A stretch of 64,000 bases of DNA from an uncultured Gammaproteobacteria bacterium (GCA_964641255.1 CAZXMM010000001.1:601984-665983); one strand, 5' to 3'. Positions 30,585 to 64,000 are shown, numbered from the stretch's first letter. Notes: generated by a model from the sequence alone, not told the origin. Made by a program: numbers and translations.

Positions 30585-30601
30585 ATATTTTCACCTCCAA
30601 T

Positions 30602-32237: not shown

Positions 32238-32241
32238 AGTT

Positions 32242-32913: not shown

Positions 32914-32927
32914 GGCTGTATTCTACC

Positions 32928-34704: not shown

Positions 34705-34725
34705 AACTTATTAACTTGGGCAGTC

Positions 34726-36034: not shown

Positions 36035-36088
36035 TTTCTCACCTCCTCTCCATCAAGCATACTGCCTTTATACTTTAGGAATCAATAT

Positions 36089-38863: not shown

Positions 38864-38868
38864 AGATT

Positions 38869-39093: not shown

Positions 39094-39107
39094 AAAACTA
39101 GAATTAT

Positions 39108-40934: not shown

Positions 40935-41018
40935 TTTTTTCTAATTAAAAACCAACTCTTGTTGAAGCGTTGGTTCTTGCTTACAAATGATTATGTTTGA
41001 AGGATACTAAAGTGAAGA

Positions 41019-41516: not shown

Positions 41517-41521
41517 CCGAA

Positions 41522-41935: not shown

Positions 41936-41951
41936 AATTTTCCTTTCTATT

Positions 41952-44388: not shown

Positions 44389-44398
44389 AGTCGGATAA

Positions 44399-45139: not shown

Positions 45140-45190
45140 TACTACACAGTGTAGTAGGTGTATTTTCTCTTGTCAAGAGGAGTTTGACAG

Positions 45191-46568: not shown

Positions 46569-46574
46569 GATCGC

Positions 46575-49003: not shown

Positions 49004-49607
49004 TTAGTAATGTTTGAATAGTTTGGCCTTTTAATTGCTGAGTTTTCGTTTGGTCCTTGTTATAAAAGGAATAAAATAAATCCAATAGCTCTAAACTGTC
49101 GAGTTGTCTGGCTTTCATTCCTAACTTTTCAATACCTTTCGTAACCAGATCGGCATTCAACTTAATTTGTTCTTTAATAACTTGGAAATCCTTAATCTTG
49201 GTTGTGTTGTGATAGGGAATTACAATGTAAAACCTCCGAGAAAGGATTTTGTTGCCGGAAACTACGCTTTTAATGAAGTCAGAGTAATTGGCAATTTGTT
49301 CTTTATACTGAGCTTCTTTTTCTTCCGTTTTTGATTTTGCAATTCCCTCCAAGTAGCTGTCGATGTCAACTTCTCTAACTCGAACAAGAATTTGAATTTG
49401 ACTAGGAAGTGAATTAAGGAAGTTTTGAAAACTATCAATTAGAACATCTTGTTCCTGCTCACTTTTGAGTTCAAAGTTAATTGAGGAAGTCTCAATGGCC
49501 ATGCGGTATTGTTCGCTGGGAAGAATAAGAATACCGTCTTTAACTTCTTTGATATTAATTTGTCTTCGGGAGCTAACTTTGTTGCTAGACTTGTTCAAAA
49601 GCCACAT
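48987..49607 (-). CDS. T4SS-associated hypothetical protein
   Basis: Operon position only. Confidence 0.35.
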   Translation of the reverse strand: MWLLNKSSNKVSSRRQINIKEVKDGILILPSEQYRMAIETSSINFELKSEQEQDVLIDSFQNFLNSLPSQIQILVRVREVDIDSYLEGIAKSKTEEKEAQYKEQIANYSDFIKSVVSGNKILSRRFYIVIPYHNTTKIKDFQVIKEQIKLNADLVTKGIEKLGMKARQLDSLELLDLFYSFYNKDQTKTQQLKGQTIQTLLNDNHA

Positions 49608-50094
49608 GGAGTCCTCCTTTCTTGTTTGTCTTAAAACTAAAGCTCAAATTTTTGTTTAAGACCAATTTATCCAGTTCCACTAAATCCTTGATGCCAATAT
49701 TCTTTGTTGGATTGATTACTGGTTGGAGATGTGCTTTTCTAGCAAGGTTTTTTGCCTTCATTGGAACTTCTGGTAAATAGAGAGTGCGTAAACAGTTATC
49801 GTTTTTGTTAAAGACGTAATATTTTGGCCTTAGGTTGTAGTTAGACAAAACAAGCAACCAATCAAGAATAATTTTTCCTTTGATGCGCATGGCCAAAATA
49901 GTAAAAGTGCTAATTGCAAGCAAACTAGCTGCTATCTTGATTGGGTTGAGTTTGTAAGTGGGAGGTAAAACTACATAAAGAATAGTGGCACTAAATATTG
50001 CACCTAAGAAGAGAAGGATTTGCGTCAGATTTAGGTTTCCGGCAATCTTATCCTCCACTGTAGTAATTTGTGCTGGCACAACTGTTGTTCTCAT
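49585..50094 (-). CDS. T4SS-associated membrane protein
   Basis: Two TM segments. Operon position. Confidence 0.35.
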   Translation of the reverse strand: MRTTVVPAQITTVEDKIAGNLNLTQILLFLGAIFSATILYVVLPPTYKLNPIKIAASLLAISTFTILAMRIKGKIILDWLLVLSNYNLRPKYYVFNKNDNCLRTLYLPEVPMKAKNLARKAHLQPVINPTKNIGIKDLVELDKLVLNKNLSFSFKTNKKGGLHVAFEQV

Positions 50095-51386
50095 ATTGCA
50101 ACCGCCTTTCTGGGTACTTTGATTACTGCTTCTTTAGCCGCTACTGCTGTAGCTGAACTCGATCTTTCAGTGGTCATTACATTGACAATTTGACTCCCCA
50201 TTTTTTTGAAAGTGCCATTTCTCGAAGTGTAGAAGACCATTTGCATCATCGTGCCAGGAACTTTAAGAAGGGTGAGAAAAAGTCCAATTGCAATCGCGAT
50301 TGCTAACAGTGAATTATTAGAGTTGCCAGGAATAGTTAAGAATGCAGCCGCTAGTTGAATAACTACTACATGGATAAACACAGTAAAGACAGTAGCGACG
50401 TAAGATTTAATCGCAATTTCAGCAAAGTCAGAGAATTTTGGTAAGGTCCATAGCAGAAAGATAAATGGTGACAAAACTGCACCTAAAGAAATAGTAATTA
50501 GTCGAGCAATGTACATAAGGAGGAGAACCACTGCCAAAATGAGGAATAGCACGAGGAAAATAAGTGTAATAAGTGGAGTAGTGCCAGTGGCAAAGCTCAC
50601 GGGATTAATTGCATCCATAATCCAGGCATGGCTCAGTCCTCCAGTGGAATCAAGAATAGTTTTGACTAAAGTGTTAGCTGTGGTAATCACATAGTCAGCC
50701 AGGAATAAAGAAATATTAGCTCCCAGAAATGCGGTCCCAATTCTTGGCAGCAGTTGTTTTAATTCCACTTCTTCAAACCCAAGAGTGCTGGCACTCATGA
50801 AATGAAGACCAAGCAGCGCCACCACCAAAACAAATAGTGTATCCACGATTCCCAAACTAACTAACCAAAAGTTCGTAATCACTGAATTACCCAAAAGATT
50901 GGGAGTTGTGGTTAAAAAGCCAATGATGCCGTCAACTATTGGTTTAGTGGAACTTTCCACGATGTTTTGAATGAAAGCAGATACTGCGTCAATTAAGACT
51001 TGTGATAAACCATCACTTGGCTTAATGGTCGTAATTGGTGCAATAGTTACAGCAGCAGAATTTGCAGTAGTTGAGGAAGCAGGCAGCGCACCTTTAAAGA
51101 TGGAAATGATCAGTCCCGCAGACAGAACCACAACGAGACCCATTAAACTGTTTCTAATTGTTTTCTTGGCCTCATCTAGTGCTTGTGGTTGACCCGCTGA
51201 GGTGAAATAGAGATAACCACCTTTAATTAAGAAAAGCGTTGCTGCCGCCGTTGCAATGATGGTAATGAGATTTAAAGTATCAGTGGTATAAGTTGCCAAA
51301 TCCGTTCCCGCAGCAAATGCGGGCAAAGGAAATATGAAGAAAGCTAGGATTACTCCTAAAATGGTTACAACTTTTCTCATAGGCAC
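50091..51386 (-). CDS. VirB6/TrbL-like polytopic membrane protein with N-terminal pilin-like domain
   Basis: Signal peptide. The N-terminal domain GGYLYFTSAGQPQALDEAKKTIRNSLMGLVVVLSA is homologous to the adjacent small pilin-like protein. Six or more TM helices follow. Confidence 0.4.
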   Translation of the reverse strand: MPMRKVVTILGVILAFFIFPLPAFAAGTDLATYTTDTLNLITIIATAAATLFLIKGGYLYFTSAGQPQALDEAKKTIRNSLMGLVVVLSAGLIISIFKGALPASSTTANSAAVTIAPITTIKPSDGLSQVLIDAVSAFIQNIVESSTKPIVDGIIGFLTTTPNLLGNSVITNFWLVSLGIVDTLFVLVVALLGLHFMSASTLGFEEVELKQLLPRIGTAFLGANISLFLADYVITTANTLVKTILDSTGGLSHAWIMDAINPVSFATGTTPLITLIFLVLFLILAVVLLLMYIARLITISLGAVLSPFIFLLWTLPKFSDFAEIAIKSYVATVFTVFIHVVVIQLAAAFLTIPGNSNNSLLAIAIAIGLFLTLLKVPGTMMQMVFYTSRNGTFKKMGSQIVNVMTTERSSSATAVAAKEAVIKVPRKAVAI

Positions 51387-51388
51387 TT

Positions 51389-51736
51389 TTAATTACCTGT
51401 TCCTGATCCAAAAGCACCAGTCGCCAGTTGTGTGACCATGTTAGACAGCACAAATGCTCCCAGAACGACCACTAAGCCAATGGCTGAATAGACAATGGTC
51501 TTTTTGGATTTATCCAGTGCTTCAGGATTGCCGGAACTTGTGATGTAACCAAATCCACCAACGACAAAGAACCCAGAAGCAACAAGACCAGCGAGAGTTA
51601 CCAGAATAGTAATGATGCTTTGGATAAATGTTTGAATTTTTGATACATCAGCGGAAGCGGCAAAAACTGGAGTGGTAATTGTAAGTGCTGTTAAAGCAAG
51701 AGCTTGTAAAAAAACAATTTTCTTCATATCTTCCAC
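51389..51736 (-). CDS. VirB2/TrbC-like pilin candidate
   Basis: Signal peptide plus two hydrophobic helices. GGFGYITSSGNPEALDKSKKTIVYSAIGLVVVLGA. Confidence 0.45.
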   Translation of the reverse strand: MEDMKKIVFLQALALTALTITTPVFAASADVSKIQTFIQSIITILVTLAGLVASGFFVVGGFGYITSSGNPEALDKSKKTIVYSAIGLVVVLGAFVLSNMVTQLATGAFGSGTGN

Positions 51737-51964
51737 CCCCTTTCGGAAGTTCTTTTTATGATGGGCAGAAGAAAAAAGAAACTTACTGTGTAAAACTATT
51801 TCAAATTATATCAACGAGTTGAAGAAAGTCAATTGGGACAATCTAAAATATGCTTTTTGAAGCAACTTATTACACAAGGAGATTTAATTTTTCTCCGAAA
51901 AATTCGCTTTTTTCAAAAACATTAACTCAAATTTAGTTTCTCTTGTCTTTTGTGTCATCTATGT

Positions 51965-53233
51965 TCATAGCTCTATTTCAAACCGTGGGGCAAAAGAATA
52001 ATTTGTTGGAGATACTGAACGAATTTTGTCATAAATAAACATTTTTATCCCAATTCTTCCTGATTTCCCGCCGCTTGTGTCCCAACCCCAAAAATATTCC
52101 ATTGGTCTTCCATCAGCTTTTCTCACCCTGTACTCAAAGGCATAAGGCTCTACTAATCGCTCGGCTCCGTCATACTCCATACTGACCATCTTTTGCGACC
52201 TGCCAGCAGAGATTATTGTATTGCGCTCAGCAGAGGGAAAATAACTGGCCGAAGGTGTTGCTCTAAAATACGAACTGGATCTACCGTAACCACCCATGTT
52301 CGGCGTCGAATATGCAAAAGCTGGTGCCGGTGTTGGCGGGGGAAGAAGTGAAAACAAAACATTAACCATATCCTGAAATCCAGAAACTGCTCTATCAAAA
52401 TCAAAGACACTGAAAATTGGAGCGATAATTTGTTGCCAAAACGGCCGATATTCCTCTGTCGGGACATTTAAAAGTAAATTCTTTGCAACATCTGGAGAAG
52501 ATTCATAAATGGTTTTCTTCAAGAAAGTGGTAATAACTTCCTGTCTACTTACACTGTAGTCGTTGTTCACCATAATGGAGAACACTAAATCAAATAAATC
52601 AGTTACTTTTCCTCTTTGGATTGAGGAATTTAACTTTGACGCAAGAATTTCTTCTAATTTCTGGCATTTTAAATTTGCGACACAGGATTCTGCATCCGAA
52701 TAGGGATGTATCAAAGATTTATCTTGAACAGGAAGGAGTATTTGATCAAAAGTTGTGACATCTAGCTGAACTTTTAATACAATTTCTTCTTCACCGTAAA
52801 AACTTTTAAAATAAATTCGTGCTTCATACACCTGCTTATTTTCTTTGTCAAAACCACGTTTTTCATCTACTTGAGTCTTATCCACTTCAAAATTCACACC
52901 AGTTCGATCATGAGCATATTGGCAGACTTCATTGATGGCAGCGCCGATCGTGGTGGGATCAACTTCATTGACAACGGAGAAGTCAAGATCTTTAGAGAAA
53001 CGGGTATTTTTAAGATAGGCCTTCCGCAGTGCATTCCCTCCTTTAAGGATGAATTTTTCTCCCAACTGAGATTCGTTGTAAATTCCAGCAAGTAACCACC
53101 CAAAAACATAATCCCTTTGCACATTCGCGGGATTAATTTGGAATTCCTTTGCTTTCTCTTCTATTTCACCATCCTGGATCATAAAAAAGACTTTAGGGGC
53201 TGCGCTCCTCTTTTGCAAGGGTTTCCGTTTCAC
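51965..53233 (-). CDS. AbiEii/DUF1814-family nucleotidyltransferase with ~150-aa C-terminal extension
   Basis: ILKGGNALRKAYLKNTRFSKDLDFSV matches GGTAL...RfSeDLDf. No AbiEi-like gene upstream. Confidence 0.5.
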   Translation of the reverse strand: MKRKPLQKRSAAPKVFFMIQDGEIEEKAKEFQINPANVQRDYVFGWLLAGIYNESQLGEKFILKGGNALRKAYLKNTRFSKDLDFSVVNEVDPTTIGAAINEVCQYAHDRTGVNFEVDKTQVDEKRGFDKENKQVYEARIYFKSFYGEEEIVLKVQLDVTTFDQILLPVQDKSLIHPYSDAESCVANLKCQKLEEILASKLNSSIQRGKVTDLFDLVFSIMVNNDYSVSRQEVITTFLKKTIYESSPDVAKNLLLNVPTEEYRPFWQQIIAPIFSVFDFDRAVSGFQDMVNVLFSLLPPPTPAPAFAYSTPNMGGYGRSSSYFRATPSASYFPSAERNTIISAGRSQKMVSMEYDGAERLVEPYAFEYRVRKADGRPMEYFWGWDTSGGKSGRIGIKMFIYDKIRSVSPTNYSFAPRFEIEL

Positions 53234-53359
53234 TTCAATGAACTACGCATAGCTTCGCCCTTGCAAAATTCACCTTGCTTTCTTAATAGCTCCTATCGGA
53301 AGCATGCGCATGCTTCCGATCTTTAATTTTTCGGGAGCACGAAAGGAGGTGAACAATTT

Positions 53360-53659
53360 ATGCAATTACTACCTAAATATGTTGTTTCTACAATTCCTAA
53401 GCTCTATGAAGTAGAAAATGAAGCTGATCCACTAGTCAGATGCAAGTTTTTCTTGCCAGATTCAAGTTGGACTTGGTATGTTTTGGAATTTGATGGTGAA
53501 GATAATTTTTTTGGCTATGTGGTGGGAGCGGAGCCAAAATTAGGCTATTTTTCTTTCAAAGAGTTGAAAAATGCTAGGGGAGCACTAGGTTTGCCAATTA
53601 AAAGAGACTTTCACTTCAAACCAAAACGTTTGCCTGAAGTGAGAAAACTTCACGAATAA
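53360..53659 (+). CDS. DUF2958-like protein
   Basis: KFFLPDSSWTWYVLEFDGEDNFFGYVVGAEPKLGYFSFKEL. Confidence 0.4.
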   Translation: MQLLPKYVVSTIPKLYEVENEADPLVRCKFFLPDSSWTWYVLEFDGEDNFFGYVVGAEPKLGYFSFKELKNARGALGLPIKRDFHFKPKRLPEVRKLHE

Positions 53660-53664
53660 ATTAA

Positions 53665-53689
53665 TTTGCCGCCACTGCCCGGCGGCAAA
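53665..53689. terminator. Bidirectional hairpin between convergent genes
   Basis: TTTGCCGCC-ACTGCCC-GGCGGCAAA: 9-bp perfect stem, 7-nt loop. Confidence 0.45.
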
Positions 53690-53691
53690 CT

Positions 53692-54456
53692 CTACTTTAC
53701 TGGTTCCCAAATTATTAGGTCTAATTTGTCAGTTTCCAAAATTTCCTTTGTGGAAAGAAAAAGCTTAACTTCATTGTTAAAAGATTTTTGAAGCAAAGAC
53801 TTACTATACATAAAAATGTGCTTTTTAAGTCGTTCATTGGGACAAACGAACAAGATTGAAGGAAATGGGCTATTATCTGTACTTTCTTGCCATTGTCCAT
53901 CCTGAAAATATTTCAAATAATATTTGATTCTATTTCTCAACACAAATGGTGGGATATTATAATCAAACAAATCCAAGAAATATCTCTTTGTTTGTTTTTC
54001 ATTTTTAACAGAAATATATGCATCGGGAAGAGGATCAGGAAAATATTTATAACCTTTCAGATTTTGTTTAGTAAAAAATTTAAGAACCGACCCCTTTTCC
54101 TCCTTAGATAAAAGGAGCAAATAGACCGTAGCTATAAAAAGATGATGGTTAATAAATGGTTTTTCTTTGGTTTTTTCCTTATACAACCTACTTAGAAACG
54201 TTTTTTCAAATTTATCATGATCTTTTAAGAGCTGCCCCGATTTAGTATCTAAGCAATAAATGAATGGTTGTGTTCGATCTTTGTCTTTAATTACTGCAAT
54301 ATATTTTTTATATTCTAGATCTTGTAGCCAGGTATTAATTCGATATTGAGCTTTGTGGTTGAGTAGCTTTTGGAGATGATTAGTTGTTAAGTAGCGGAAT
54401 TTATATAGTAAATGTATTATTTTTTCTTGGCCTTTGGTTGTAGGTGGAGTAGTCAT
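53692..54456 (-). CDS. Replication-relaxation (Replic_Relax) family protein
   Basis: IIHLLYKFRYLTTNHLQKL...RINTWLQDLEYKKYIAV...CLDTKSGQLL. Confidence 0.5.
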   Translation of the reverse strand: MTTPPTTKGQEKIIHLLYKFRYLTTNHLQKLLNHKAQYRINTWLQDLEYKKYIAVIKDKDRTQPFIYCLDTKSGQLLKDHDKFEKTFLSRLYKEKTKEKPFINHHLFIATVYLLLLSKEEKGSVLKFFTKQNLKGYKYFPDPLPDAYISVKNEKQTKRYFLDLFDYNIPPFVLRNRIKYYLKYFQDGQWQESTDNSPFPSILFVCPNERLKKHIFMYSKSLLQKSFNNEVKLFLSTKEILETDKLDLIIWEPVK

Positions 54457-54581
54457 GGTTAGGTTAGTCTTTAGGATTATAAATAAAGCCTCTTATATTT
54501 ATATAAGATATAAAAAGGATGTAAACAAAAGTAAATTAGGTTCAAAATTACTCAAAATCAGTGTTAACGCGCTAACACAAT

Positions 54582-57260
54582 TTATTCGTCAATATCATCT
54601 TCAGGTAGTGCCGTGTTTTTAAACTTATTGGGACTCTTTTCTTGGCCGTTTGAAACTTTCTCTTTACTCTCTACTTTTAATTTATGAATGTACTTAATTG
54701 CCCAATTCTTCCTAGAAGCTTCAACTAGTGCTTCCATCTTTCCTTTGTCTTTAATAACTGGAATAAAGAGGGTTTCACCGGAGAATGGAGCTTCGGACTC
54801 AATAGCAGAAATTTTAATATAGAAGTGATAGCGAGACAGGTTTTGAATTTCTCCTTCTTCAACATATGGCGTAAACTGAGATAGCATCAATTGTTCATCA
54901 ATTGGGTTGCCAGATTTGAAACAAATTACGGTTGTGACGTTAGATAAAATCACGTTGACAATACTTCTGTCTTGCTGCTGTGACGTTGATTGTTCGGCGA
55001 TACAAACTTCTAGTCCATACTTTCTGCCTTCGGATAACATTTTAGAGAAGGACAATGTGGCAAAGTTTTGAAACTCGTCGACATAAAGATGAAACTGTTT
55101 TCTTTCACTTTGTGGCCGGTCTGCACGTTTAAGAGCAGCTTGCTGCAGCTTGGTTAAGATAGTTGTTCCCAGAAGCTTTGCTGTGTCCTCACCTAGCTTT
55201 CCTTGGGGAAGATTACAAATTAATATCTTTCCATCTAACACTTCGTCAAAATTGATTGTGGATTTCTTTTGTTCAAGTATTCGCTTTGCAGTTGGTGAGA
55301 AAAGGAATCGGCCGATCTTAGCAGTAACTCCACTGGTCATTTTAACTACTTGATAGTCACCAGCTCGACCAAACTCGAATTTCCAAAAGTTCTTCAGATT
55401 TTCGTCTTGTAGTTTGGCTACCACTTTTTGTTGGAATGGTGGATTGTTAAGTAAATCGTAAACTGTAAAAATCGTGGGTTCTTCTGTGGTAAACGCAGTG
55501 TGAATAGTATTTCTTAAGATATATTCGATTCTGTGAGCGTTGGCATTCTCCTCCTTGGAGAACACTTTTCTAAAAAGCGAAATTACCCCTTCAGCTACGA
55601 GTTCTTTTTCTAACTCCGCTTCATCTTCGTCTAGTCCAGGAGTTAACTCTAATAGATTAATTCCAATTGGATATTTAAGATCAACTGGATTGAAATATAT
55701 AAGGTCGTCTTTTCTATCTTCTGGAACTGAGGCTAGTAAGTCTTCGGAAACATCGCCATGAGGATCGACAAAAGCCATTCCTTCACCGCTTGCAATATCG
55801 TGCCTGGCCATGCTGAACATTAGCGTTGTTTTTCCACTCCCAGTTCGTCCAATAATATACATATGAGTTTTCCGCTCATCCGCGGTTAATCCAATTGGAG
55901 TTTCCGTTCCTGCATACGTGTTTTTTCCAAACACCACGCTTAGCTCTTTTCCTTGCTTTAAGGTGAGGGGTGCTGGAAGCTCTTTTGACATGATCTTAAC
56001 TATATTTTCAGTTTGCGTTACTTTGGCAAACGGAAAATGGAAGAGATCGGCTGCTTCTGAAACTGATAGAAGAGAATTACTGCTGTTTAATATTGGCGAT
56101 AAAAGGCGTTTCTCAAAAGCTAATAGTCTAAGTCTATTAGTTAAAACTCCTGGAAAACTATTCTTTGGCTGAATTGCTTGATATTGTGGCACTCCAAAAA
56201 CGGCCAAAGAGGAAGTAAAACCATCACTTCTTTCCTGACTGGCAGTTTTATCTTTCATAACTGTCAGAACCCGAATCGAGCTTTCAAAAAGAGATTGTTT
56301 AATCTTTTCTTGAATTGTTTCAACTGTCTGCTGTTCAAAACTACTTAAAACTCTTGCCGGTTTAACATGCGCCTGCTGTATCTGTTGTTGAGATTGCATT
56401 TGGTAAGCATAGGCAGGAGAAGAGCTTGGTGAGTGAACTAACTCGGTAATTATCCATTGAGTTTCCCTGCCTAATTCACTAATTCCCTTCATAAGGATAT
56501 TTAAAGCAAAATTCAATGGGTTCAGCCATTTAGGGAATTGGAAGCTATTCAAATAATCCAAAACATTTTCATTGTGCAGAATCATGGTCGATAATTTATT
56601 AACCTCACTCACTTTTGTCGGAGTTAACACTAACTGGAAGGCGATAAGTTCTCCAGGATTCAGTTTTGTCATCATGCCAGTGATATAGGCTACGGGATCG
56701 TGCTCATCTAGTACATTCTGTTTTTGCAACGGAAAGGCAAAATGTTTGCTTAACTTATACTCAGTTATTTTCGTGTGTGAAGTATCTGAAATTTTAGATA
56801 AGTATTCTTCAACTTCTTTTACATTCGCTTGTGGAACATATGAGAATAAGTTCCTTTTGACATTATTTACTTCCCTTGGAGAAGTTCTAATTAAAAATCT
56901 TATTCCTTGATCTAAAGTCGAAACTATTTCAAAGGAAAACACAATCTTCCTCCCTAAAACTCTGTCTATAAATTTCCTTTTACTTCCCAGGGTATGGACC
57001 ACGGCAAATAGTTGAGCGGTTGTATAAGCAGTTTTTTGGCTAAAGGCTGGCGGGGTGAGCTCCAAGAGGATGCTTTCTTCCTTGAGTTCTTTCCCCATAG
57101 AAATAAGCCTTCTAAGGAGTTGGATTAACCCTACAAATAAAATCAAACTGGAAATTATATAGAAAGCTGGAGCTAATTTAATTACCACGGACAGCATGTT
57201 AATCTGCAGTAAAGCGGCTTTGAATATCTGTCCAAACCCCAATTGCTTTAAAATGGTCAT
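54582..57260 (-). CDS. Type IV coupling protein-like ATPase (VirD4/TraD/TcpA-like), 892 aa
   Basis: N-terminal TM helices. Walker A IIGRTGSGKTTLM. Walker B LYVDEF. Confidence 0.5.
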   Translation of the reverse strand: MTILKQLGFGQIFKAALLQINMLSVVIKLAPAFYIISSLILFVGLIQLLRRLISMGKELKEESILLELTPPAFSQKTAYTTAQLFAVVHTLGSKRKFIDRVLGRKIVFSFEIVSTLDQGIRFLIRTSPREVNNVKRNLFSYVPQANVKEVEEYLSKISDTSHTKITEYKLSKHFAFPLQKQNVLDEHDPVAYITGMMTKLNPGELIAFQLVLTPTKVSEVNKLSTMILHNENVLDYLNSFQFPKWLNPLNFALNILMKGISELGRETQWIITELVHSPSSSPAYAYQMQSQQQIQQAHVKPARVLSSFEQQTVETIQEKIKQSLFESSIRVLTVMKDKTASQERSDGFTSSLAVFGVPQYQAIQPKNSFPGVLTNRLRLLAFEKRLLSPILNSSNSLLSVSEAADLFHFPFAKVTQTENIVKIMSKELPAPLTLKQGKELSVVFGKNTYAGTETPIGLTADERKTHMYIIGRTGSGKTTLMFSMARHDIASGEGMAFVDPHGDVSEDLLASVPEDRKDDLIYFNPVDLKYPIGINLLELTPGLDEDEAELEKELVAEGVISLFRKVFSKEENANAHRIEYILRNTIHTAFTTEEPTIFTVYDLLNNPPFQQKVVAKLQDENLKNFWKFEFGRAGDYQVVKMTSGVTAKIGRFLFSPTAKRILEQKKSTINFDEVLDGKILICNLPQGKLGEDTAKLLGTTILTKLQQAALKRADRPQSERKQFHLYVDEFQNFATLSFSKMLSEGRKYGLEVCIAEQSTSQQQDRSIVNVILSNVTTVICFKSGNPIDEQLMLSQFTPYVEEGEIQNLSRYHFYIKISAIESEAPFSGETLFIPVIKDKGKMEALVEASRKNWAIKYIHKLKVESKEKVSNGQEKSPNKFKNTALPEDDIDE

Positions 57261-57374
57261 TTCCGTCTCATTTGTGGGCAGACAGACTTTGAAATAATAA
57301 GACTACGTGAGCAGTAAACGGAGTATAGCTTATTGTTAAGCTCCAAGCAAAAAGAAAGTCCAGTAAGTTGTGGG

Positions 57375-57617
57375 TTAAAAAGGCAAAATTTGTGAAGATC
57401 TAACGTTTAAGACTTTACAGATTTTTTCCATTACGGAGAAGGTTAAATTTTGTTCACCTCTCTCAATCCCTGCATAGTAAGTTTCAGAAATTCCCACGTT
57501 TTTAGCAACTTCCTCTTGAGTCCAACGCTTTTTGTCTCTGATCTCCCTGACTTTTCGGCCAAACTCTTCGAGTGACCGTCTATTTATGTCTACTGGCATG
57601 AAATTAGTATAGCGCAT
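57375..57617 (-). CDS. XRE-family HTH regulator
   Basis: WTQEEVAKNVGISETYYAGIERGEQNLTFSVMEKI. Confidence 0.6.
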   Translation of the reverse strand: MRYTNFMPVDINRRSLEEFGRKVREIRDKKRWTQEEVAKNVGISETYYAGIERGEQNLTFSVMEKICKVLNVRSSQILPF

Positions 57618-57674
57618 TTTAAAAAGAGCTTTTCAAGTATTTAATAGCTGGGTCTGTAAAAGCAATTCTCGTGC

Positions 57675-57719
57675 TTGACAGGTGTAACTATAGTTACTAT
57701 ACTATAAATATAGTTACAC
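57675..57719 (+). promoter_or_regulatory. Sigma70-like promoter TTGACA-N17-TATACT overlapped by an 11-bp inverted repeat (operator candidate)
   Basis: TTGACA 57675-80, TATACT 57698-703, IR GTGTAACTATA (57683-93) / TATAGTTACAC (57709-19). Confidence 0.45.
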
Positions 57720-57737
57720 CGCAATATCGAATAAAAC

Positions 57738-57923
57738 ATGTTAACGCCAGAATTATTAGAGGAATTTAAGAGACTATACCAAAAGAAATACAATATTAGT
57801 CTTTCTGATGAAGAAAACACTCGACTGGCAACAGACTTTCTAAATTTAATGAAAGTTTTATTAAGGCCGAAGCCAAAAAAAGCCGAGAGTAATGAAAGTT
57901 ATCAATCGGCAAGCCAAATATGA
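57738..57923 (+). CDS. Small protein upstream of and overlapping (ATGA) the recombinase; possible directionality factor or regulator
   Basis: ORF track. 4-nt overlap with the recombinase start. Confidence 0.25.
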   Translation: MLTPELLEEFKRLYQKKYNISLSDEENTRLATDFLNLMKVLLRPKPKKAESNESYQSASQI

Positions 57924-59662
57924 GATTAAACGAATATACAAACGTGCAATCGTCTGTTCAACAATTACCTACCGTTCCCAGATATATCATGTACTGCCGA
58001 AAAAGCAGTGAGTCTGACGAGCGACAAATCCAGTCTTTACCCGACCAAATCACAAGTTTGACAAATCTTGTCAAAGGGCAAGGAATGAACCTGGTGGGAG
58101 AAGCCTTACAAGAATCCAGAACAGCCAAAATTCCAGGCAGACCAGTATTTGAACAGCTAATCCAAATGATAGAAAACGGCAAAGCAAACAGCATCGTACT
58201 CCTTAACCCCTCACGTCTTTCTCGAAACACAGTAGATACTGGAAGAGTAATTTATATGATGGATCAGGGAAAGCTTCTTGAAGTGATGACGCCTTATCAA
58301 ACATTTAAAAACAATCCTAATGATAAATTCATGCTCAATTTGCTATGTAGTCAAGCTAAGTTAGAAAACGACAATAAAAGCGTTAACATAAAAGAATCGC
58401 TGAAGCTTAAATCAGAACGCGGCATTTTCCCTGGTAAGGCTAGACCCGGTTATAAAAATAATCACGAAAAACCTCAAGGGCTAAGAGACATTTCTGCTCA
58501 TTCAGTTTATTTTCCGTTAATGAGGAAACTCTTCGACTTAGCCTTAACTGGAAACTACAGTGTTGAAAAACTGGTTGTTGAATCTGAAAAGCTGGGAATA
58601 CGAAGTTCCAAAAGTGGAAAGACTATTTGTAAAAGTTGGATGCACCGAATTCTCAGAGACCCCTTCTACACAGGGCGGTTTATTTACAACGGAAAGATAT
58701 TTAAAGGACAGCATCCGGCCATAATTAGCGATGAAGAGTTTAACCTCTTGCAAGATATTTTAGACGGAAGGACAAAACCAAGACAATACCGACACGACTT
58801 TGCTTTAAATGGAATTATTAAATGTGGAAGCTGCGGTTATTGCGTAACAGCTGAAGAACATACCAAGAGATATAAAAATGGCAAATGTCAGGTTTTTGCC
58901 TATTATCACTGCACTAAAAAAGGCAGCGACAAATGTGACCAACCCTATGTACGTACTTCCAAGTTAGAAGTACAGTTTGCTTCTGAGTTAACTCAATTAG
59001 AGTTAGATAAAGATTCTCTTGGATGGGCATATAAAGCTTTAGATCTTGTAAAAGAGAAAGACAGCGTAGTAACCAAAGATAGTTCTGAAGCTATCAAAAT
59101 TACTTTAGACGGAGTCAATAAACGAATTGATAATTTATTAGCTCTTAAAATCTCTCCGGTCAATTCTGACGGCAGCTTACTGTCTGATAGCGAATTCTCT
59201 GATAGGAAAAGAAAACTAATGGAAGAAAAAGACCAAATAATTCAGCAACTTTCACAAGTTAATTCCAATAATAATGAATGGATTGATTTGGCAGATGGCA
59301 GTTTTGAGTTTGGTCGATTAGCTTATGACAGGTTTATAAACGGGGACTCAGAGGATAAGAAAGTCATTTTTAAGACAATCGGCTCGAACCAAATCTTAAT
59401 AGATCAAAAATTGCAATTTCAGCTTCGAAAACTATTTCTCTATTATAAAAGGGGCGCAAATGGGGGAGGAGAGAAGAAAGACCCGCTCGTACCTAAAGAC
59501 GGACTGTTAAATCAATCTAATCTCAATTTTTCTGAAAAAAGTTCTCTATGGTGCGGACGAGAGGAGTTGAACCTCCACACCCTTGCGGGCACCAGCACCT
59601 CAAGCTGGCGTGTATACCATTTCACCACGTCCGCTGATTTTTTACAGAATCTTGTGCCGTGA
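57920..59662 (+). CDS. Large serine recombinase (resolvase catalytic domain + recombinase domain + zinc ribbon)
   Basis: YCRKSSESDERQIQSLPDQ catalytic Ser region. CGSCGYC...C zinc ribbon. The 3' end reads antisense through tRNA-Leu(GAG). Confidence 0.8.
   Translation: MRLNEYTNVQSSVQQLPTVPRYIMYCRKSSESDERQIQSLPDQITSLTNLVKGQGMNLVGEALQESRTAKIPGRPVFEQLIQMIENGKANSIVLLNPSRLSRNTVDTGRVIYMMDQGKLLEVMTPYQTFKNNPNDKFMLNLLCSQAKLENDNKSVNIKESLKLKSERGIFPGKARPGYKNNHEKPQGLRDISAHSVYFPLMRKLFDLALTGNYSVEKLVVESEKLGIRSSKSGKTICKSWMHRILRDPFYTGRFIYNGKIFKGQHPAIISDEEFNLLQDILDGRTKPRQYRHDFALNGIIKCGSCGYCVTAEEHTKRYKNGKCQVFAYYHCTKKGSDKCDQPYVRTSKLEVQFASELTQLELDKDSLGWAYKALDLVKEKDSVVTKDSSEAIKITLDGVNKRIDNLLALKISPVNSDGSLLSDSEFSDRKRKLMEEKDQIIQQLSQVNSNNNEWIDLADGSFEFGRLAYDRFINGDSEDKKVIFKTIGSNQILIDQKLQFQLRKLFLYYKRGANGGGEKKDPLVPKDGLLNQSNLNFSEKSSLWCGREELNLHTLAGTSTSSWRVYHFTTSADFLQNLVP
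59549..59634 (-). tRNA. tRNA-Leu (anticodon GAG), CCA encoded
   Basis: GCGGACG...CCAGC-TTGAGGT-GCTGG, long variable arm, GGAGG-TTCAACT-CCTCT, CGTCCGC-A-CCA. Confidence 0.8.
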
Positions 59663-59741
59663 GGGAGAGTTGAACTCCCACTCCTTGTTTAAGGGAACAG
59701 GCTTCTGAGGCCTGCGTGTCTGCCAGTTCCACCATCACGGC
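59655..59741 (-). tRNA. tRNA-Leu (anticodon CAG)
   Basis: GCCGTGA...CAGGC-CTCAGAA-GCCTG, long variable arm, GGGAG-TTCAACT-CTCCC, TCACGGC-A. Confidence 0.8.
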
Positions 59742-59769
59742 ATTCTGGTTGACCAGCTTACCTATTTTG

Positions 59770-59842
59770 TGCCGAGGTACAGAATCGAACTGTAATCTGA
59801 TGCTCTTCAGGCACCCGCCGTGACCAACTTGGCTACCTCGGC
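59770..59842 (-). tRNA. tRNA-Phe (anticodon GAA)
   Basis: GCCGAGG...GGTGC-CTGAAGA-GCATC-AGAT-TACAG-TTCGATT-CTGTA-CCTCGGC-A. Confidence 0.7.
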
Positions 59843-59863
59843 TTAAATAAAAACTACTTTGGG

Positions 59864-59934
59864 AGCGGGATACCAGAATCGAACTGGTGCTCACACTTTG
59901 GAAAAGTGTTGTTCTACCATTGAACTAATCCCGC
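59864..59934 (-). tRNA. tRNA-Gly (anticodon UCC)
   Basis: GCGGGAT-TA-GTTC-AATGGTA-GAAC-A-ACACT-TTTCCAA-AGTGT-GAGC-ACCAG-TTCGATT-CTGGT-ATCCCGC-T. Confidence 0.8.
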
Positions 59935-59993
59935 TTTCGCTGCGCTTCGGCGGGCAAGCCCGCTTCATCAGCGTTGTTTATTATATATTATTG

Positions 59994-60065
59994 TCGGGGT
60001 GAGAGGAATTGAACCTCCTGCTTCTCGGTCCCAAACCGAGCGTTCTACCGATGAACTACACCCCG
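59994..60065 (-). tRNA. tRNA-Pro (anticodon UGG)
   Basis: CGGGGTG-TA-GTTC-ATCGGTA-GAAC-G-CTCGG-TTTGGGA-CCGAG-AAGCA-GGAGG-TTCAATT-CCTCT-CACCCCG-A. C1:G72 and A73 are typical of tRNA-Pro. Confidence 0.8.
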
Positions 60066-60076
60066 AAACCTCTTAG

Positions 60077-60158
60077 TGCCGAGGATGGGAGTCGAACCCA
60101 TATCCCTTGAGAGGACACGATTTTAAGTCGTGCGTGTATACCATTCCACCACCCCGGC
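60077..60158 (-). tRNA. tRNA-Leu (anticodon UAA)
   Basis: GCCGGGG...CACGA-CTTAAAA-TCGTG, long variable arm, ATGGG-TTCGACT-CCCAT, CCTCGGC-A. Confidence 0.75.
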
Positions 60159-60394
60159 TAGCTATGCTTAGTCCTTACGAATAGTGACGGCTTTTATTTC
60201 CAGTTCGTTGTCCTTATCAACCATCTCCTCGAGCATCTCAAGAAGCTTTTGAATTTTGTCTTCAGGACCAACGAACTCCATGATGAGTCGTTGCAAATCA
60301 TCGGCCATATGTAAAATTCCTTTCTCTGTAATTTTAGCATGCCTAAAGCCAAAGTACGATAAGAACTACCAAAGGGGGGGTCTTTTCTATATAA

Positions 60395-62020
60395 TTACGT
60401 CAGCTGCGGGCGTTGTATACCGGTAATACGTCTCCTTGCCAAGGAGAAGACAGAGGGTTCGATTCCCTTCGCCCGCTCCATATCGGACTGCATTTGCAAA
60501 AATGCCTTTTTAGACCGATCTATAGAGCTATTTTCAGGTTCGAGCCACTCATTTTTCCGAATTACGCTTTTTTCAGTCTCTTTTATGTACACAAATGCGT
60601 TTTTGGCGTTGATTCGGACTATTCTGTCTTTCAACTCCAGGTTCGAGCCGAGAATCCTCAGTACCATTCTTTTGGCTTCCGTGTCGTAAGAATGGAAGAT
60701 TTTAGTGACGTTGGATAGAAATGCTAACACCTCTTCCATCACCTCAGTCCAGTTAGTTAAACCGTCGCTGGCAATGTTATCCTTTGTCTGTTTTTCTTCA
60801 ACCAAAAGACGACTTTTTTCCTTTTTATACTCATCATCGCTAATTAAACCTTCAATCTTCATTCCATAAAGGTTTTTCTTCTCAACTAAAATAGCGTCAA
60901 GGCGTTTGGTCAGTTTACTTTTCTGTCCGCGCTCGAATTCAAATTCCCTCTCGTTTCTTCTTCTGAGGTTTTTCCTGACCCAGGTCACAAACGTAGGTCT
61001 TATTTCCAAACTGTTGATAAACTCAGTTACCTGTTTCTCAACTTCAATTGCATTAAGGTATGGCTGACTACATGGTCCTTTTTTCTTAACACACCTGGCA
61101 TAGATGAAAGTCTGAGAGTTGCCGTTTTTATATTCCTTAGTTTTGCGGTCACAGGTAATTGCAGAGCCGCACTCCCCGCACTTGAGTGTTTTCATGAAGT
61201 AAAAGTCATTTGTAAATTGGTGTATCTTGGCTCTGCCATCAATGGTGTCCTGAACCCGATAATATTCATCAAGTGTTACCATTGGTGTGTGTTTTCCGTT
61301 AAATCGTTCTCCTACGTAGTCAAATAATCCGGCGTAGAAGATATTTCTAAAAAACCGGAAAGCTTCGGTTCTGCTTACCGGTTTGCCTGTTCTCTTGCTT
61401 TTTAGTCCCAAGGCAGTAATTTTCTGCAGAGAACTCTCGACAGTTTCATTGCCTGTCAGCATTAACTCCCACCACGACCGACACAGGTTAAACCGTTCCG
61501 GATCAGGAAGAACTTCCTTTTGCCCCTTCGGCTTTATGGGATCGTTAACATAACCTAATGGTGCTGAACCTGGCCTCCACCCGTTTTGAACTTTTGTATT
61601 CATTCCACGCTTAACATTATCGGAAAGATCTTTGCTAAATTTAGTTGCCATGCCGAACTCAATAAATAGAAAGGTTGAGTTATTTCGGTCGTAGTCCATT
61701 GTCGGTGTAACAATCTGCATTCCGTTATAGTCGACATGATCAATGAGGGTTCCGCCTTCTTTGGCATTCCGGCATAAACGGTCAGCCTTCCAGCAAATTA
61801 TATGGTTGGCTTCACCCTGAGATATCCTGGCAAGCATCTGCTTAAACTCCGGTCTCTTGTCCGGTCGTTTGGCTGATTTGCTCTCTCTATACACGCCAAT
61901 AACAGCGAAGCCTTTGTCCGCCGCTAGTTCGCTACAAATTTTTTCCTGATCATCAAGAGAGAGAATTTGGCGGTCTTTATCCTCGGAAGATTTTCTACAG
62001 TATATAAAACAAGTATTCAT
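60395..62020 (-). CDS. Large serine recombinase, paralogue of 57920..59662. Its 3' end reads antisense through tRNA-Gly(GCC).
   Basis: FIYCRKSSEDKDRQILSLDDQ. Zinc ribbon KCGECGSAITCD. Coiled-coil C-terminus. Confidence 0.8.
   Translation of the reverse strand: MNTCFIYCRKSSEDKDRQILSLDDQEKICSELAADKGFAVIGVYRESKSAKRPDKRPEFKQMLARISQGEANHIICWKADRLCRNAKEGGTLIDHVDYNGMQIVTPTMDYDRNNSTFLFIEFGMATKFSKDLSDNVKRGMNTKVQNGWRPGSAPLGYVNDPIKPKGQKEVLPDPERFNLCRSWWELMLTGNETVESSLQKITALGLKSKRTGKPVSRTEAFRFFRNIFYAGLFDYVGERFNGKHTPMVTLDEYYRVQDTIDGRAKIHQFTNDFYFMKTLKCGECGSAITCDRKTKEYKNGNSQTFIYARCVKKKGPCSQPYLNAIEVEKQVTEFINSLEIRPTFVTWVRKNLRRRNEREFEFERGQKSKLTKRLDAILVEKKNLYGMKIEGLISDDEYKKEKSRLLVEEKQTKDNIASDGLTNWTEVMEEVLAFLSNVTKIFHSYDTEAKRMVLRILGSNLELKDRIVRINAKNAFVYIKETEKSVIRKNEWLEPENSSIDRSKKAFLQMQSDMERAKGIEPSVFSLARRRITGIQRPQLT
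60406..60480 (+). tRNA. tRNA-Gly (anticodon GCC), CCA encoded
   Basis: GCGGGCG-TT-GTAT-ACCGGTA-ATAC-G-TCTCC-TTGCCAA-GGAGA-AGACA-GAGGG-TTCGATT-CCCTT-CGCCCGC-T-CCA. Confidence 0.85.
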
Positions 62021-62049: not shown

Positions 62050-62307
62050 TTACTTCTGGATTGTGTTGATGTTAACTCTATTACGTTTGTTTGCAAGTGA
62101 TTTTTCGATTAAGGTATCCACCAACAGCAATAATGCAGTCGCTTGCTCAAAAGCCTGCTCGTCAGTTAACCGTACTCCATACTCTTTAAGGGCTATTTCC
62201 TTAAACTCATCGAGTTCCTCTCTGGTTACGAGAGAGTTTGTAAGTATTAGGGTGTTACCGTTATTAGTTGTTTTCTGGGCAGCAATTTCTGTCATCTTTA
62301 TAACCAA
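62050..62307 (-). CDS. Small hypothetical protein
   Basis: ORF track. Confidence 0.3.
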   Translation of the reverse strand: MVIKMTEIAAQKTTNNGNTLILTNSLVTREELDEFKEIALKEYGVRLTDEQAFEQATALLLLVDTLIEKSLANKRNRVNINTIQK

Positions 62308-62711
62308 AGGTACAGAAACTGTCGATTTACCTCAATAAACTTTATGATTGGATTTGTCCACTTGTGTAAATATTCAGATGATTTGTGTACATTACTGATC
62401 AATTAAGCAGAATTTGCTATGATAAAAATATGCCGACCTTTTTCCATCAGGAGAAAAAACAGCCTTTTATGTACTCAGCGATTGAAACCCGTAGGAGCAA
62501 ACCAAACTATTCAGGTTGGGTTATTGGAGGTGTTTTGTTGACCGGCTTATTACTCGGGGCATATCTAATTCTTACCTAGTGCGATTGACTCTGAAAGGCA
62601 TTTTTGGTATATTTACAGTACCGAATGACCTTTGTGGTGAAGGTACCTTACTTTTAGGGAACTGTTGACATTAGCAATAGTGATTCAACTTAGCCACAGA
62701 GGTCGCTTTTT

Positions 62712-63347
62712 TTAGTAGGGCTTCCACAAATCTTCTTCCCGTTTTCTGATCAGCTTATAAAACGAATCGTCCTTTTTGTTGTATTTTCTGTAAATTGCTC
62801 CGCACACCATATCAGCCAGCTGTAAGAGGTTGTTGCTTTTGGAATCCTTGTGCCGGATCTCCCCAATGAGTTTATTCATATCAGTGTTTAGTTTTCTCTT
62901 CAGGTAATGATTGAATTTCTGAATGAAGGCTTTTGACTGTGCAGTTCTGTCAACAAAAAGTGAAGCGTTTTTCACTCTGCCCTGTGCTCTGAGGAACAAC
63001 TGATCAGTAACCAGCATATATAAACTTTCTTCAGGATTATGAGGCTCGCGTTGCGCGAGTTTTTCTTTATCAATGACTATCGTCCGGTACCGGAAGTCAT
63101 ATTTTGAGAGTTTGCTCAGAAACACAGTCTTATACTTATTCGATGTTCCCGTACTAAACTTAAACTCTTTATTATCGGGAAATTTGAGTTCCTTATGTAA
63201 TTGGTTAATCGCTTCGTTTGCTTCCGCCGCACTTTCAAGATTGTCGAAGATAACGATTGTTAAAACAAAATACCTACTGGAGGCAGTCTTCAGCTTAAAT
63301 CCGGTGTCCCCGGATTCATCCATAAAAATAAGCATCGCTAGCGGCAT
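62712..63347 (-). CDS. DUF3800-family protein
   Basis: N-terminal MLIFMDESGDTG is the DUF3800 hallmark (IDESG). Confidence 0.5.
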   Translation of the reverse strand: MPLAMLIFMDESGDTGFKLKTASSRYFVLTIVIFDNLESAAEANEAINQLHKELKFPDNKEFKFSTGTSNKYKTVFLSKLSKYDFRYRTIVIDKEKLAQREPHNPEESLYMLVTDQLFLRAQGRVKNASLFVDRTAQSKAFIQKFNHYLKRKLNTDMNKLIGEIRHKDSKSNNLLQLADMVCGAIYRKYNKKDDSFYKLIRKREEDLWKPY

Positions 63348-63790
63348 AAGCCCCCCTTTAAAACAACGTTCACCCCATACTGAGTAAAATCCTCTGGTAT
63401 AAAAAAGTAGTCGGCTATTTCTGCAGCCGGAAGATGTTTAACTTTCCCGAGTTCAGACTTTGGCATAAGAAGTTCGGCAGCGAAACACTGTGCTTCATGT
63501 TCCTGCTTAAAGGCAGTGAACTGGTCCCTGCTTTCAAAATAGAAGTGATTTCCCTGATGCAGGAAGTGATGTCCTAAGGCGTGAGCAATTAGTTCGCGCT
63601 GTTTTTTGGGACATTCGTTTTTGTTAATGCCGATACAGTCACCGAGATAGACCTCTTTCACCCTTCCATGAAACGACCAACTATCAAGTATCAGCTCTTC
63701 GCCGTCAATAATTGTCTGTAAATTAATCGGGGCAGTAGTCAGGTTGTACTTGCGCAAAACCTGCCTAGCCTTTTTTTGGGCTTTTATCAT
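63338..63790 (-). CDS. ImmA/IrrE-family zinc metallopeptidase
   Basis: HEXXH in ELIAHALGHHFLH. Upstream partner is the XRE gene. Confidence 0.6.
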   Translation of the reverse strand: MIKAQKKARQVLRKYNLTTAPINLQTIIDGEELILDSWSFHGRVKEVYLGDCIGINKNECPKKQRELIAHALGHHFLHQGNHFYFESRDQFTAFKQEHEAQCFAAELLMPKSELGKVKHLPAAEIADYFFIPEDFTQYGVNVVLKGGLCR

Positions 63791-64000
63791 ATTTTTTATT
63801 CCTTCTGGACTTTACATACTCGATGTAGTCCAGAACGGTTTGTCTTTCCCGTACGGTCATATCCTGAACTTCCTTCAGCATTAACGTAAAGGTTGCATCC
63901 TCTTTAACTCTCTTACTCGTTTTGTCCAAGTAGCCTGCTTTGTTTAGTAGTAATTCATAAGGGATGTTATACGCGACAGATAACCCTTTTAACTTGAACG
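63765..64000 (-). CDS. XRE-family HTH regulator, partial (runs off the window end)
   Basis: Minus-strand translation ...LKGLSVAYNIPYELLLNKAGYLDKTSKRVKED...RQTVLDYIEYVKS. The stop overlaps the ImmA start. Confidence 0.5.
   Translation of the reverse strand, partial: FKLKGLSVAYNIPYELLLNKAGYLDKTSKRVKEDATFTLMLKEVQDMTVRERQTVLDYIEYVKSRRNKKYDKSPKKG

Follow-up and report, generated by a model that had tools for sequence, protein, structure and literature searches.

Probable insertion of a conjugative element and a predicted prophage at tRNA 3′ ends by two related large serine recombinases

Why would two recombinase genes run from opposite sides into a tRNA cluster and continue, antisense, through its genes? 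This arrangement occurs in a stretch of 64,000 nucleotides deposited as an uncultured Gammaproteobacteria bacterium (GCA_964641255.1 CAZXMM010000001.1:601984-665983), referred to below as the window; the two genes, LSR1 and LSR2, encode large serine recombinases (LSRs). An earlier reading, made from the sequence alone, had taken them as signs of two integrative elements that entered the cluster from opposite sides. We consider it very likely that two elements integrated independently on either side of the tRNA cluster, each inserted at a tRNA 3′ end by one of the related LSRs, and that the left one, an integrative and conjugative element (ICE), carries its attachment site (attP) inside the recombinase gene.

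In the proposed mechanism, both LSRs would belong to one superfamily, common in the candidate phyla radiation (CPR)/Patescibacteria, whose target site (attB) would be centred on the last tRNA bases, with LSR1-type enzymes using tRNA-Leu and LSR2-type enzymes using tRNA-Gly or tRNA-Thr. The attP of the ICE would lie inside the 3′ end of the recombinase gene, and crossover would take place within the four nucleotides GTGC. Integration would cut the gene 36 codons before its natural stop, leave the tail orphaned at the far end of the element and fuse the integrase body to antisense tRNA codons acting as unconserved filler. Later elements could insert at the attR site so formed, giving rise to tandem arrays with internal attP-like junctions.

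The recombinase genes and the tRNA 3′ ends

Gene calling with ARAGORN placed seven tRNA genes at 59549..60480 of the window; together with a check of the open reading frames (ORFs), it confirmed the seven-tRNA cluster and the positions previously given for both recombinase genes.

59549..60158, minus strand: array of six tRNA genes, Leu-GAG, Leu-CAG, Phe, Gly-TCC, Pro, and Leu-TAA (ARAGORN)
60406..60480, plus strand: tRNA-Gly(GCC), target of the predicted prophage (ARAGORN; identity between the window, L015, L019, and L020)
57920..59662, plus strand: LSR1, integrated hybrid form, 580 aa; residues 1-545 native, 546-580 antisense of tRNA-Leu(GAG)
60395..62020, minus strand: LSR2, integrated hybrid form, 541 aa; ~513 native residues, then tRNA-Gly antisense codons

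The target of the ICE is tRNA-Leu(GAG), the last gene of the six-tRNA array. In both LSRs, Pfam detected the Resolvase, Recombinase, and Zn_ribbon_recom domains (PF00239, PF07508, PF13408). Both also matched PHROG 95 'integrase' (E = 1e-64 to 1e-69) and structures of SPbeta SprA, the closest full-length solved relative (E = 1e-8). The two proteins are 31% identical over ~520 aa (E = 3e-80), in keeping with the relationship and the zinc ribbons noted earlier. Their alignment stops at residues 542 and 512, respectively, which correspond to the 3′ ends of tRNA-Leu(GAG) (59549) and tRNA-Gly(GCC) (60480). From W544 (59549) onward, LSR1 is the antisense of tRNA-Leu(GAG), with a stop 9 nt inside tRNA-Leu(CAG), and the last ~28 codons of LSR2 are the antisense of tRNA-Gly(GCC); here, too, the sequence-only reading was right. 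Both genes are full length with intact catalytic domains, and in their architecture and att logic the encoded proteins are predicted to be canonical large serine integrases.

The abutment to tRNA genes recurs among relatives. A search with the LSR1 protein gave 816 matches at E ≤ 1e-20, and the C-termini were studied in the best 120 of them, which share 57-80% identity and whose named members are from CPR lineages (among them Woykebacteria, Roizmanbacteria, Microgenomates, and Saccharimonadales). These C-termini read ..NLxNYLKSSLWCGREDLNLH.., where TGG TGC represents GCACCA read in antisense and REDLNL stems likewise from the acceptor stem plus T arm. According to a simple motif count, T-arm-antisense tails are recognisable in ~70 of the 120; 32 end with 'WCG*', two codons into the tRNA, and a handful deviate. 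A tRNA-Leu gene (GAG, TAG, or CAG) is located on the opposite strand in all 14 GTDB genome loci with LSR1 relatives, with its 3′ end 3-6 nt past the position of LSR1 residue 542, and the conserved junction of the family in such loci is ..AAAAAGTTCTSTA|TGGTGC...

Homologues of LSR2, down to 35% identity, have C-terminal peptides of the GIEP, GFEPAT, DSNP, or RTRT type, which represent three reading frames of the antisense T arm. Among seven IMG/VR viral contigs with LSR2 relatives, five carry a tRNA-Gly (TCC, GCC, or CCC) or tRNA-Thr(TGT) gene directly at the LSR 3′ end, and the remaining two terminate at that point. No LSR1 relatives were found on viral contigs in the scan. The read-through into the tRNA ranges from 2 to ~100 codons, and the residues it encodes show no conservation beyond the sequence imposed by the tRNA. 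Because the extent of read-through depends only on chance stop codons, it is best regarded as a by-product, and the abutment itself as a real feature.

Some of the CPR-type LSR1 relatives (L002, L003, L004, L006, L008, L013, and L014), which are accompanied by CPR-like tRNA arrays, were deposited as metagenome-assembled genomes of 'uncultured Gammaproteobacteria/Pseudomonadales'. These labels probably reflect mis-binning or mislabelling; alternatively, the elements may have been transferred to or from host bacteria.

Attachment sites and the split gene of the left element

Both junctions of the ICE were located in the window, at the positions given below.

59551..59554, plus strand: attR core GTGC, antisense of tRNA-Leu(GAG) G71 C72 A73 C74
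21065..21068, plus strand: attL core GTGC, the sole identity block common to attL and attR
21069..21098, plus strand: P′ arm of attP, ACCATCTGGGACGATGTTCGTACC...; T-arm-like motif TCGTACC at +18..24 from the core; arm conserved among 14 P′ copies (10 loci)
21066..21179, plus strand: orphan 3′ end of the LSR1 gene, a 37-codon segment CTIWDDVRTYITSQIDPLEKSTLITAIAYFKQKEAKL followed by a stop (tblastn E = 1e-9 to 1e-13)

The clue to the far end came from the few LSR1 homologues that lack a tRNA-type tail. In P0106 (L028) and P0096 (L029), the 3′ end of the LSR gene runs on as TGGTGCACCATATGGGACGAGACTCGTACC.., coding for WCTIWDETRTYSTSRIDSKEKTALLEAIEYFTKEV and then a stop, and the same tail sequence is present as an orphan at 21065..21179 of the window, where it reads GTGCACCATCTGGGACGATGTTCGTACC... 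The tblastn comparison covered L029, L028, and orphan copies from metagenomes, with E = 1e-13 for the L029 copy. The conserved native tail (CTIWDDVRTY...) is attached to the LSR in P0106/L028. On integration, LSR1 loses its last 36 codons and gains 35 tRNA-antisense codons. The orphan's stop codon overlaps the GTG start of the next gene, encoding a PLD-like protein (CTGTGA), with the Shine-Dalgarno sequence AAGGAGG ahead of it. When metagenomes were scanned for the P′ sequence, ten loci were found, most of which carry the conserved tail followed by AAGGAGG and ATG.

The site attR reads ..GTTCTCTATG[GTGC]GGACGAGAGG.., and attL reads ..TTAGTAATGGTT[GTGC]ACCATCTGGG.., in which the part left of the core, ..TTAGTAATGGTT, is the host B′ arm, composed of the end of the ORF 20289..21056 plus 8 nt. 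Between the two sites, the ICE is 38,486 bp long (~21069..59554). The sequence-only reading had identified the copper and type IV secretion system (T4SS) genes of this element correctly but had set its start at 46.5 kb instead of 21.07 kb. It had also anticipated direct repeats of tRNA 3′ segments at the element ends, and these are absent from the window, where only chance 9-11-mers of tRNA-Leu or tRNA-Gly recur. No tRNA 3′ segment is duplicated because GTGC is all that attL and attR have in common, which is what a serine integrase should leave; they are hybrids without a long direct repeat. Since the core is the antisense of tRNA positions 71-74, an overlap with the tRNA 3′ end that had been proposed before, the tRNA body is predicted to remain intact and host-encoded after ICE integration, with the change confined to the 3′ trailer.

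Inverted copies of the junction or P arm were sought in the window and in 10 kb upstream in 12 loci, and none was convincing; the 11-mer at 17280-17290 falls within a methyltransferase ORF and does not exceed chance expectation. An ICE end beside tRNA-Val(TAC) at 9438, considered because the Leu(GAG) gene neighbours Val(TAC) in L010 and L020, was discarded in view of the orphan tail and P′ arm at 21065.

Joining the half-sites gives a reconstructed attP of the form ..CTCTATGGTGCACCATCTGGGACG.. (its junction also given as CTCTATGGTGCACCATCTGGG and AAAAGTTCTCTATGGTGCACCATCTGGGACGATG) and a reconstructed attB, ..TAATGGTTGTGCGGACGAG.. (junction also given as CCTTAGTAATGGTTGTGCGGACGAGAGGAG). Real attP-like junctions matching the former are found in L028 and L029, and that in L028 has the same form, a perfect 14-nt palindrome TATGGTGCACCATA. 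As reconstructed, attB corresponds to a tRNA-Leu(GAG) gene lacking an encoded CCA and resembles the unoccupied copies in L029, L010, and L020. In the attP near-core (59546..59554 joined to 21069..21074; 11629..11642 in L028), the perfect palindrome spans 12-14 nt, ATGGTGCACCAT or TATGGTGCACCATA, centred on G|C. Candidates for the crossover dinucleotide within GTGC are GT, TG, and GC, and the palindrome centre points to GC.

The tRNA ends of occupied sites (59549..59554 in the window) and of three unoccupied ones were also compared. Element-occupied tRNA-Leu genes mostly end in an encoded CCA (GCACCA|TA), with C75 and A76 supplied by the P arm of the element; the exceptions, L003, L008, and L009, read TTGTGC. 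Unoccupied tRNA-Leu genes (L029 5590..5597, L010 14449..14457, and L020 12033..12041) read GCACAA or GCACAT, and at some metagenome attL sites other hosts encode CCA natively. An unoccupied-looking tRNA-Leu(GAG) in L029 (5594..6010) lies 330 nt left of the attL of an element, with its 5′ end toward that element; the junction itself is the palindrome TGCACATGTGCA, and the arrangement is at odds with simple integration.

What the integrases may recognise is suggested by a motif that these sites share. TTGAACC, the T-arm antisense, is found at +13..19 after the core in 15 of 15 tRNA-Leu B arms, and TCG(A/T/G)ACC at +18..24 in 14 of 14 P′ arms from the 10 loci. The motif ends at +24 in P′ arms versus +19 in B arms, i.e., exactly 5 bp further out in P′. 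In the single LSR2-type P′ arm (L027), TCGAACC is likewise at +18..24, versus +13..19 in tRNA-Gly. The shift was examined in right-hand half-sites only, the P and B′ arms being without the motif. In the sites of the LI/A118 integrase, the zinc-ribbon motif extends over bp 16-24 of each attP half-site but over bp 11-19 of each attB half-site (PMC3783163); because the LI motif shifts likewise, the 5-bp offset agrees with the attP/attB spacing rule of serine integrases. We infer that the zinc-ribbon domain reads the tRNA T arm (TTGAACC or TCGAACC) in attB and a mimic of it in attP. The P arm is constrained by coding for ..KSSLWC, and no conservation of the B′ arm is seen when reconstructed or empty sites are compared.

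Every LSR1- or LSR2-type member examined has, ~50-60 nt upstream of the core, another T-arm-like motif (CCGCTYGWACC or GGCTCGAACC), which in the window lies at 59486..59494 and at 60529..60537 (minus strand). It codes for the conserved LEP/LVP of 'RLEPKN' and is oriented like the P′ motif, which codes for VRT of the native tail. This second motif may be left over from the capture of an earlier tail, or may serve as an accessory site.

Since attR retains the tRNA half-site and the B′ arm is not conserved, attR may accept further elements. More than one P′ copy was found in each of L028, L029, L038, and L039, and LSR-P|P′ junctions are embedded in chromosomal contigs in L028, L029, and L038. We infer tandem accretion, in which a second element integrates into the attR of the resident. 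Copies of P′ or the tail lie at 11633 and 12493 in L028, at 191 and 7960 in L038, and at 10327 and 13091 in L039. L038, with two pattern matches 7.8 kb apart, was considered as a circular element and rejected, since its ends do not overlap; its arrangement is tandem. Decay is visible in L028 as an insertion sequence and a truncated coupling-protein gene.

The native tail was compared in four sequences. Codons 1-9, which form the P′ arm, show 70-89% nucleotide identity and a low synonymous rate (dS); in codons 10-34, the nonsynonymous rate (dN) is 0.25-0.40, with dS ~1 or saturated in five of six pairs. Because dN is low compared with dS in codons 10-34, the comparison points to selection on the tail peptide. 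The motif D-[DEN]-[VI]-R-T also ends the non-tRNA tails of LSRs only ~37% identical to LSR2.

A small ORF precedes each recombinase gene:

57738..57923, plus strand: 61-aa ORF before LSR1, with start overlap ATGA; homologous to the ORF before LSR2
62050..62307, minus strand: 85-aa LSR partner ORF; homologous to the ORF before LSR1

The two products share 38% identity over 42 aa (E = 3e-7), and each ORF is co-oriented with its LSR. A small ORF upstream of the LSR recurs in L015, L016, L026, L028, and L029. The partner ORFs had no match among PHROG families, and the gene tables show no Pfam match for their counterparts. They appear to be the best candidates for a directionality or accessory factor.

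A more speculative idea, which we regard as possible but doubtful, is that splitting the gene makes it a sensor of the element's state: the full-length, integration-competent integrase with its conserved 36-aa tail would be encoded by the excised circle alone. The tail would be translationally coupled to the first gene of the element in the circle, and the integrated enzyme, with its arbitrary tRNA-antisense residues, would be attenuated, or excision-biased with the help of the small partner ORF. If so, integration would be self-limiting; and with the T arm, conserved in all tRNAs, read via the attP mimic, such enzymes could be naturally retargetable tRNA integrases for CPR bacteria and beyond.

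The right element and rival explanations

The right element leaves the window at its right edge, and the following features fall within it:

62050..64000, minus strand: start of the predicted prophage lysogeny module (gene order in L015 and L026)
62712..63347, minus strand: DUF3800 gene of the lysogeny module
63338..63790, minus strand: ImmA/M78 peptidase gene of the lysogeny module

An exact-protein look-up of the ImmA gene (63338..63790) identified L015, a contig of another sample, which carries the same module of helix-turn-helix (HTH), ImmA, DUF3800, small-ORF, and LSR2 genes with 99.86% identity over 3544 bp, attached to tRNA-Gly(TCC) and different host genes (YdjM, peptidase M3). Such a 99.9%-identical LSR2 module at another tRNA in another sample implies recent movement. 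Relatives of LSR2 are located at two further tRNA-Gly genes, in viral contigs L019 (94% protein identity) and L020 (89%). The junctions of the window, L015, L019, and L020 have ..GCAGTCCGATATGGAGCG(G)G in common and then diverge (with an N at one G in L020), the shared identity ending after TGGAGCG(G)G. Divergence starts with an acceptor-stem base that is complementary to the 5′ strand of its own tRNA, as checked in the window and L015. Since this next acceptor-stem base is host-specific and compensated, the LSR2 crossover is predicted to lie within the last 9 nt of tRNA-Gly (CCCGCTCCA, 60472..60480) or just 3′ of it. By analogy, the LSR2 core may be GCTC (60475..60478), at tRNA positions 71-74. 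With both left junctions found and the LSR2 module mobile in L015, the proposal of two elements inserted from opposite sides at tRNA 3′ ends is borne out.

In IMG/VR viral contigs of 30-60 kb, LSR2 relatives occupy terminal positions. A contig from the same organism, L026, reaches 10 kb beyond the small ORF 60168..60308 and encodes Dcm and N6 methyltransferases and a GpA-type large terminase; the HTH_19 repressor of the right element runs past the window edge. Because of the GpA terminase and methyltransferases in L026, the right element is predicted to be a prophage, extending from ~60475 rightward out of the window. The DUF3800, ImmA, and XRE genes named by the sequence-only reading are indeed present, but the element they belong to would be more than an island.

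Some observations weigh against our explanation of the locus. For LSR2, the core and P′ arm are derived solely from a 62%-identical relative (P0153/L027), considered as a possible unintegrated attP, whose flanks could be phage or host, and the distal end of the prophage is beyond the window. Neither an empty attB nor a circular attP junction of the window ICE was found: the reconstructed attB had 0 exact matches when metagenomes were scanned for it, and look-ups with proteins of the flanking genes returned the same population only, always carrying the ICE. Finally, crossover at a palindromic GC would not set orientation, yet the insertions are uniformly oriented.

The lack of a detected excised form or empty site would also suit an account that sees the recombinases as relics, domesticated or in decay, and the elements as immobile fossils of old insertions, as would the partly decayed tandem arrays of L028, L029, and L038. 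We nevertheless hold this to be improbable: both LSR genes retain their full length and catalytic domains, the ICE keeps a complete conjugation set together with an intact orphan tail and P′ arm, and a nearly identical prophage module stands at a different tRNA elsewhere.

Far less credit can be given to insertion as a classical tRNA island, with crossover deep in the tRNA (anticodon or T loop), replacement of its 3′ part, and a displaced fragment at the far end. Such is the rule for tyrosine-integrase islands (PMC4383910), and a T-arm-like sequence is present in the P′ arm. However, that motif is on the element side, conserved whatever the target and offset by 5 bp; no tRNA-Leu or tRNA-Gly fragment is repeated in the window; elements that are nearly the same but occupy different tRNA-Gly genes already part in the acceptor stem, with bases compensated; and, for the ICE, the account is refuted by GTGC alone being common to attL and attR. 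Least credible of all is chance read-through, i.e., recombinases that merely lie near tRNAs and lack early stops, a possibility the sequence-only reading had named as a refutation of its own proposal: it fits the arbitrary length and unconserved residues of the tRNA-encoded extension, but in all 14 genome loci, and in 5 of 7 viral ones, conserved protein and DNA stop precisely where the tRNA 3′ end lies, most of 240 homologues have tRNA-antisense tails, and the native tail that the gene lacks turns up at the opposite end of the element.

Known systems and surrounding genes

Targeting of tRNA genes would be unusual for serine integrases. According to the Islander paper, no serine integrases were known to specify tRNA genes (PMC4383910), which agrees with what had been remarked on this locus before. 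The LSR survey of Durrant et al. gives protein-coding targets only, and the word tRNA is absent from it (PMC10083194). Our literature search, beyond whose reach most subscription journals lay, returned no described tRNA-targeting LSR family and no description of this clade. The locus also falls outside the Islander definition of a tRNA island, since its recombinases are serine recombinases and no tRNA fragment is repeated.

The enzymes described here resemble the phage integrases of Listeria A118/LI, Bxb1, phiC31, and SPbeta (SprA/YokA) in combining Resolvase, Recombinase, and zinc-ribbon domains with short att sites, a tiny identity core, and an attP that differs from attB. As in phage serine integrases, the zinc-ribbon motif is 5 bp nearer the centre in attB than in attP (PMC3783163). 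In contrast, known targets of phage serine integrases are protein-coding or intergenic and their attP normally lies beside the integrase gene; their sequence similarity to LSR1 and LSR2 is weak, and the B′ arm here is apparently unconstrained. What appears distinctive, compared with known serine integrases, is the tRNA-3′-end target, the T-arm mimic in attP, and the self-splitting gene.

Outside the serine integrases, the attB of myxophage Mx8 reportedly lies in a tRNA-Asp locus, and the genes of SSV1-type archaeal integrases are partitioned on integration. Like the latter and the tRNA islands of tyrosine integrases, the present elements use the tRNA 3′ part as a landing site, keep the integrase beside the tRNA, and form arrays; unlike them, they leave a host tRNA and a 4-nt repeat in place of a duplicated fragment and a tRNA restored from the element. 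According to PMC4701971, Mx8 IntP parallels LSR1 in having the att site inside the integrase gene and a C-terminus swapped on integration (112 residues replaced by 13), and it is less active after the swap. It differs from LSR1 as a tyrosine integrase with different strand-exchange chemistry and a longer core. The same source describes streptococcal ICEs at rumA, in which attR lies within a serine integrase gene and the C-termini of the excised and integrated forms differ (PMC4701971); their target is protein-coding, and neither a conserved orphan tail nor a tRNA mimic is reported for them. Prochlorococcus tycheposons are tRNA-associated as well, and 27 of 937 encode an LSR instead of a tyrosine recombinase. 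They differ in host phylum and cargo, and the description consulted maps no att sites for those with an LSR.

Genome engineering with large payloads relies mainly on serine integrases, whose natural targets are as a rule given as protein-coding or intergenic. The locus and its hundreds of relatives point to a large clade that would land on the last tRNA bases and leave the tRNA undamaged, with an att logic that the sequence itself reveals, attB having the T-arm motif at +13..19 and attP its mimic at +18..24. Most members fall in CPR/Patescibacteria, where genetic tools are few; the clade may represent a serine-recombinase counterpart to the tRNA-targeting split-integrase systems of Mx8 and SSV1. 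In addition, a 38.5 kb conjugative copper-resistance element is defined in an ultra-small genome.

By the gene set between its two mapped att sites, the left element is predicted to be a T4SS-type ICE carrying copper resistance. Its main features are:

21176..21676, plus strand: PLD-like nuclease-family gene, first gene of the ICE (Pfam PLDc_2; same left-end module in L029)
26685..46568, minus strand: copper/redox cargo region (Pfam)
26685..28892 and 36089..38863, minus strand: two copper P-type ATPases (Pfam)
41952..43022, minus strand: multicopper oxidase (Pfam)
46575..57260, minus strand: conjugation module (Pfam, including the L018 gene table of the same genome)
47195..49003, minus strand: VirB4-type ATPase (DUF87/AAA_10/P-loop_TraG; Pfam)
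53692..54456, minus strand: Replic_Relax relaxase-like protein (Pfam)
54582..57260, minus strand: TraG/VirD4-like coupling protein (Pfam)
57375..57617, minus strand: XRE-family HTH regulator adjoining the LSR1 module, divergent (Pfam HTH_3/HTH_31; same order in L028 and L029)

The cargo further includes a histidine kinase, DsbD-like proteins, an HMA-DsbD-cupredoxin protein, a DsbA-like protein, and a BlaR1/BlaI-type sensor/repressor pair. Other genes of the conjugation module encode an M23 hydrolase, TraC-like, PrgI-like, and T4SS pilin/TrbC proteins, AbiEii, and DUF2958.

Between tRNA-Val(TAC) and the attL of the ICE, 12 kb (9456..21056) are filled mostly with orphan plus-strand genes, including two for methyltransferases, one for a MOSC_N protein, and one for a putative carbonic anhydrase, and the GC content drops from 0.47 to 0.40. 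The segment is possibly an island of earlier date, although neither an integrase nor an att signature was found in it.

The two divergent tRNA units of the cluster are separated by a 247-nt spacer, in which a consensus scan found no sigma-70-like promoter and which contains one small ORF:

60168..60308, minus strand: 46-aa ORF MADDLQRLIMEFVGPEDKIQKLLEMLEEMVDKDNELEIKAVTIRKD (gene call in two other assemblies)

In L040 (~8520..8641, minus strand), one P′ arm carries a ~35-nt insertion with a hairpin between TGGGACGA and GTTCGAAC, which would displace the T-arm-like motif and probably inactivate the site.

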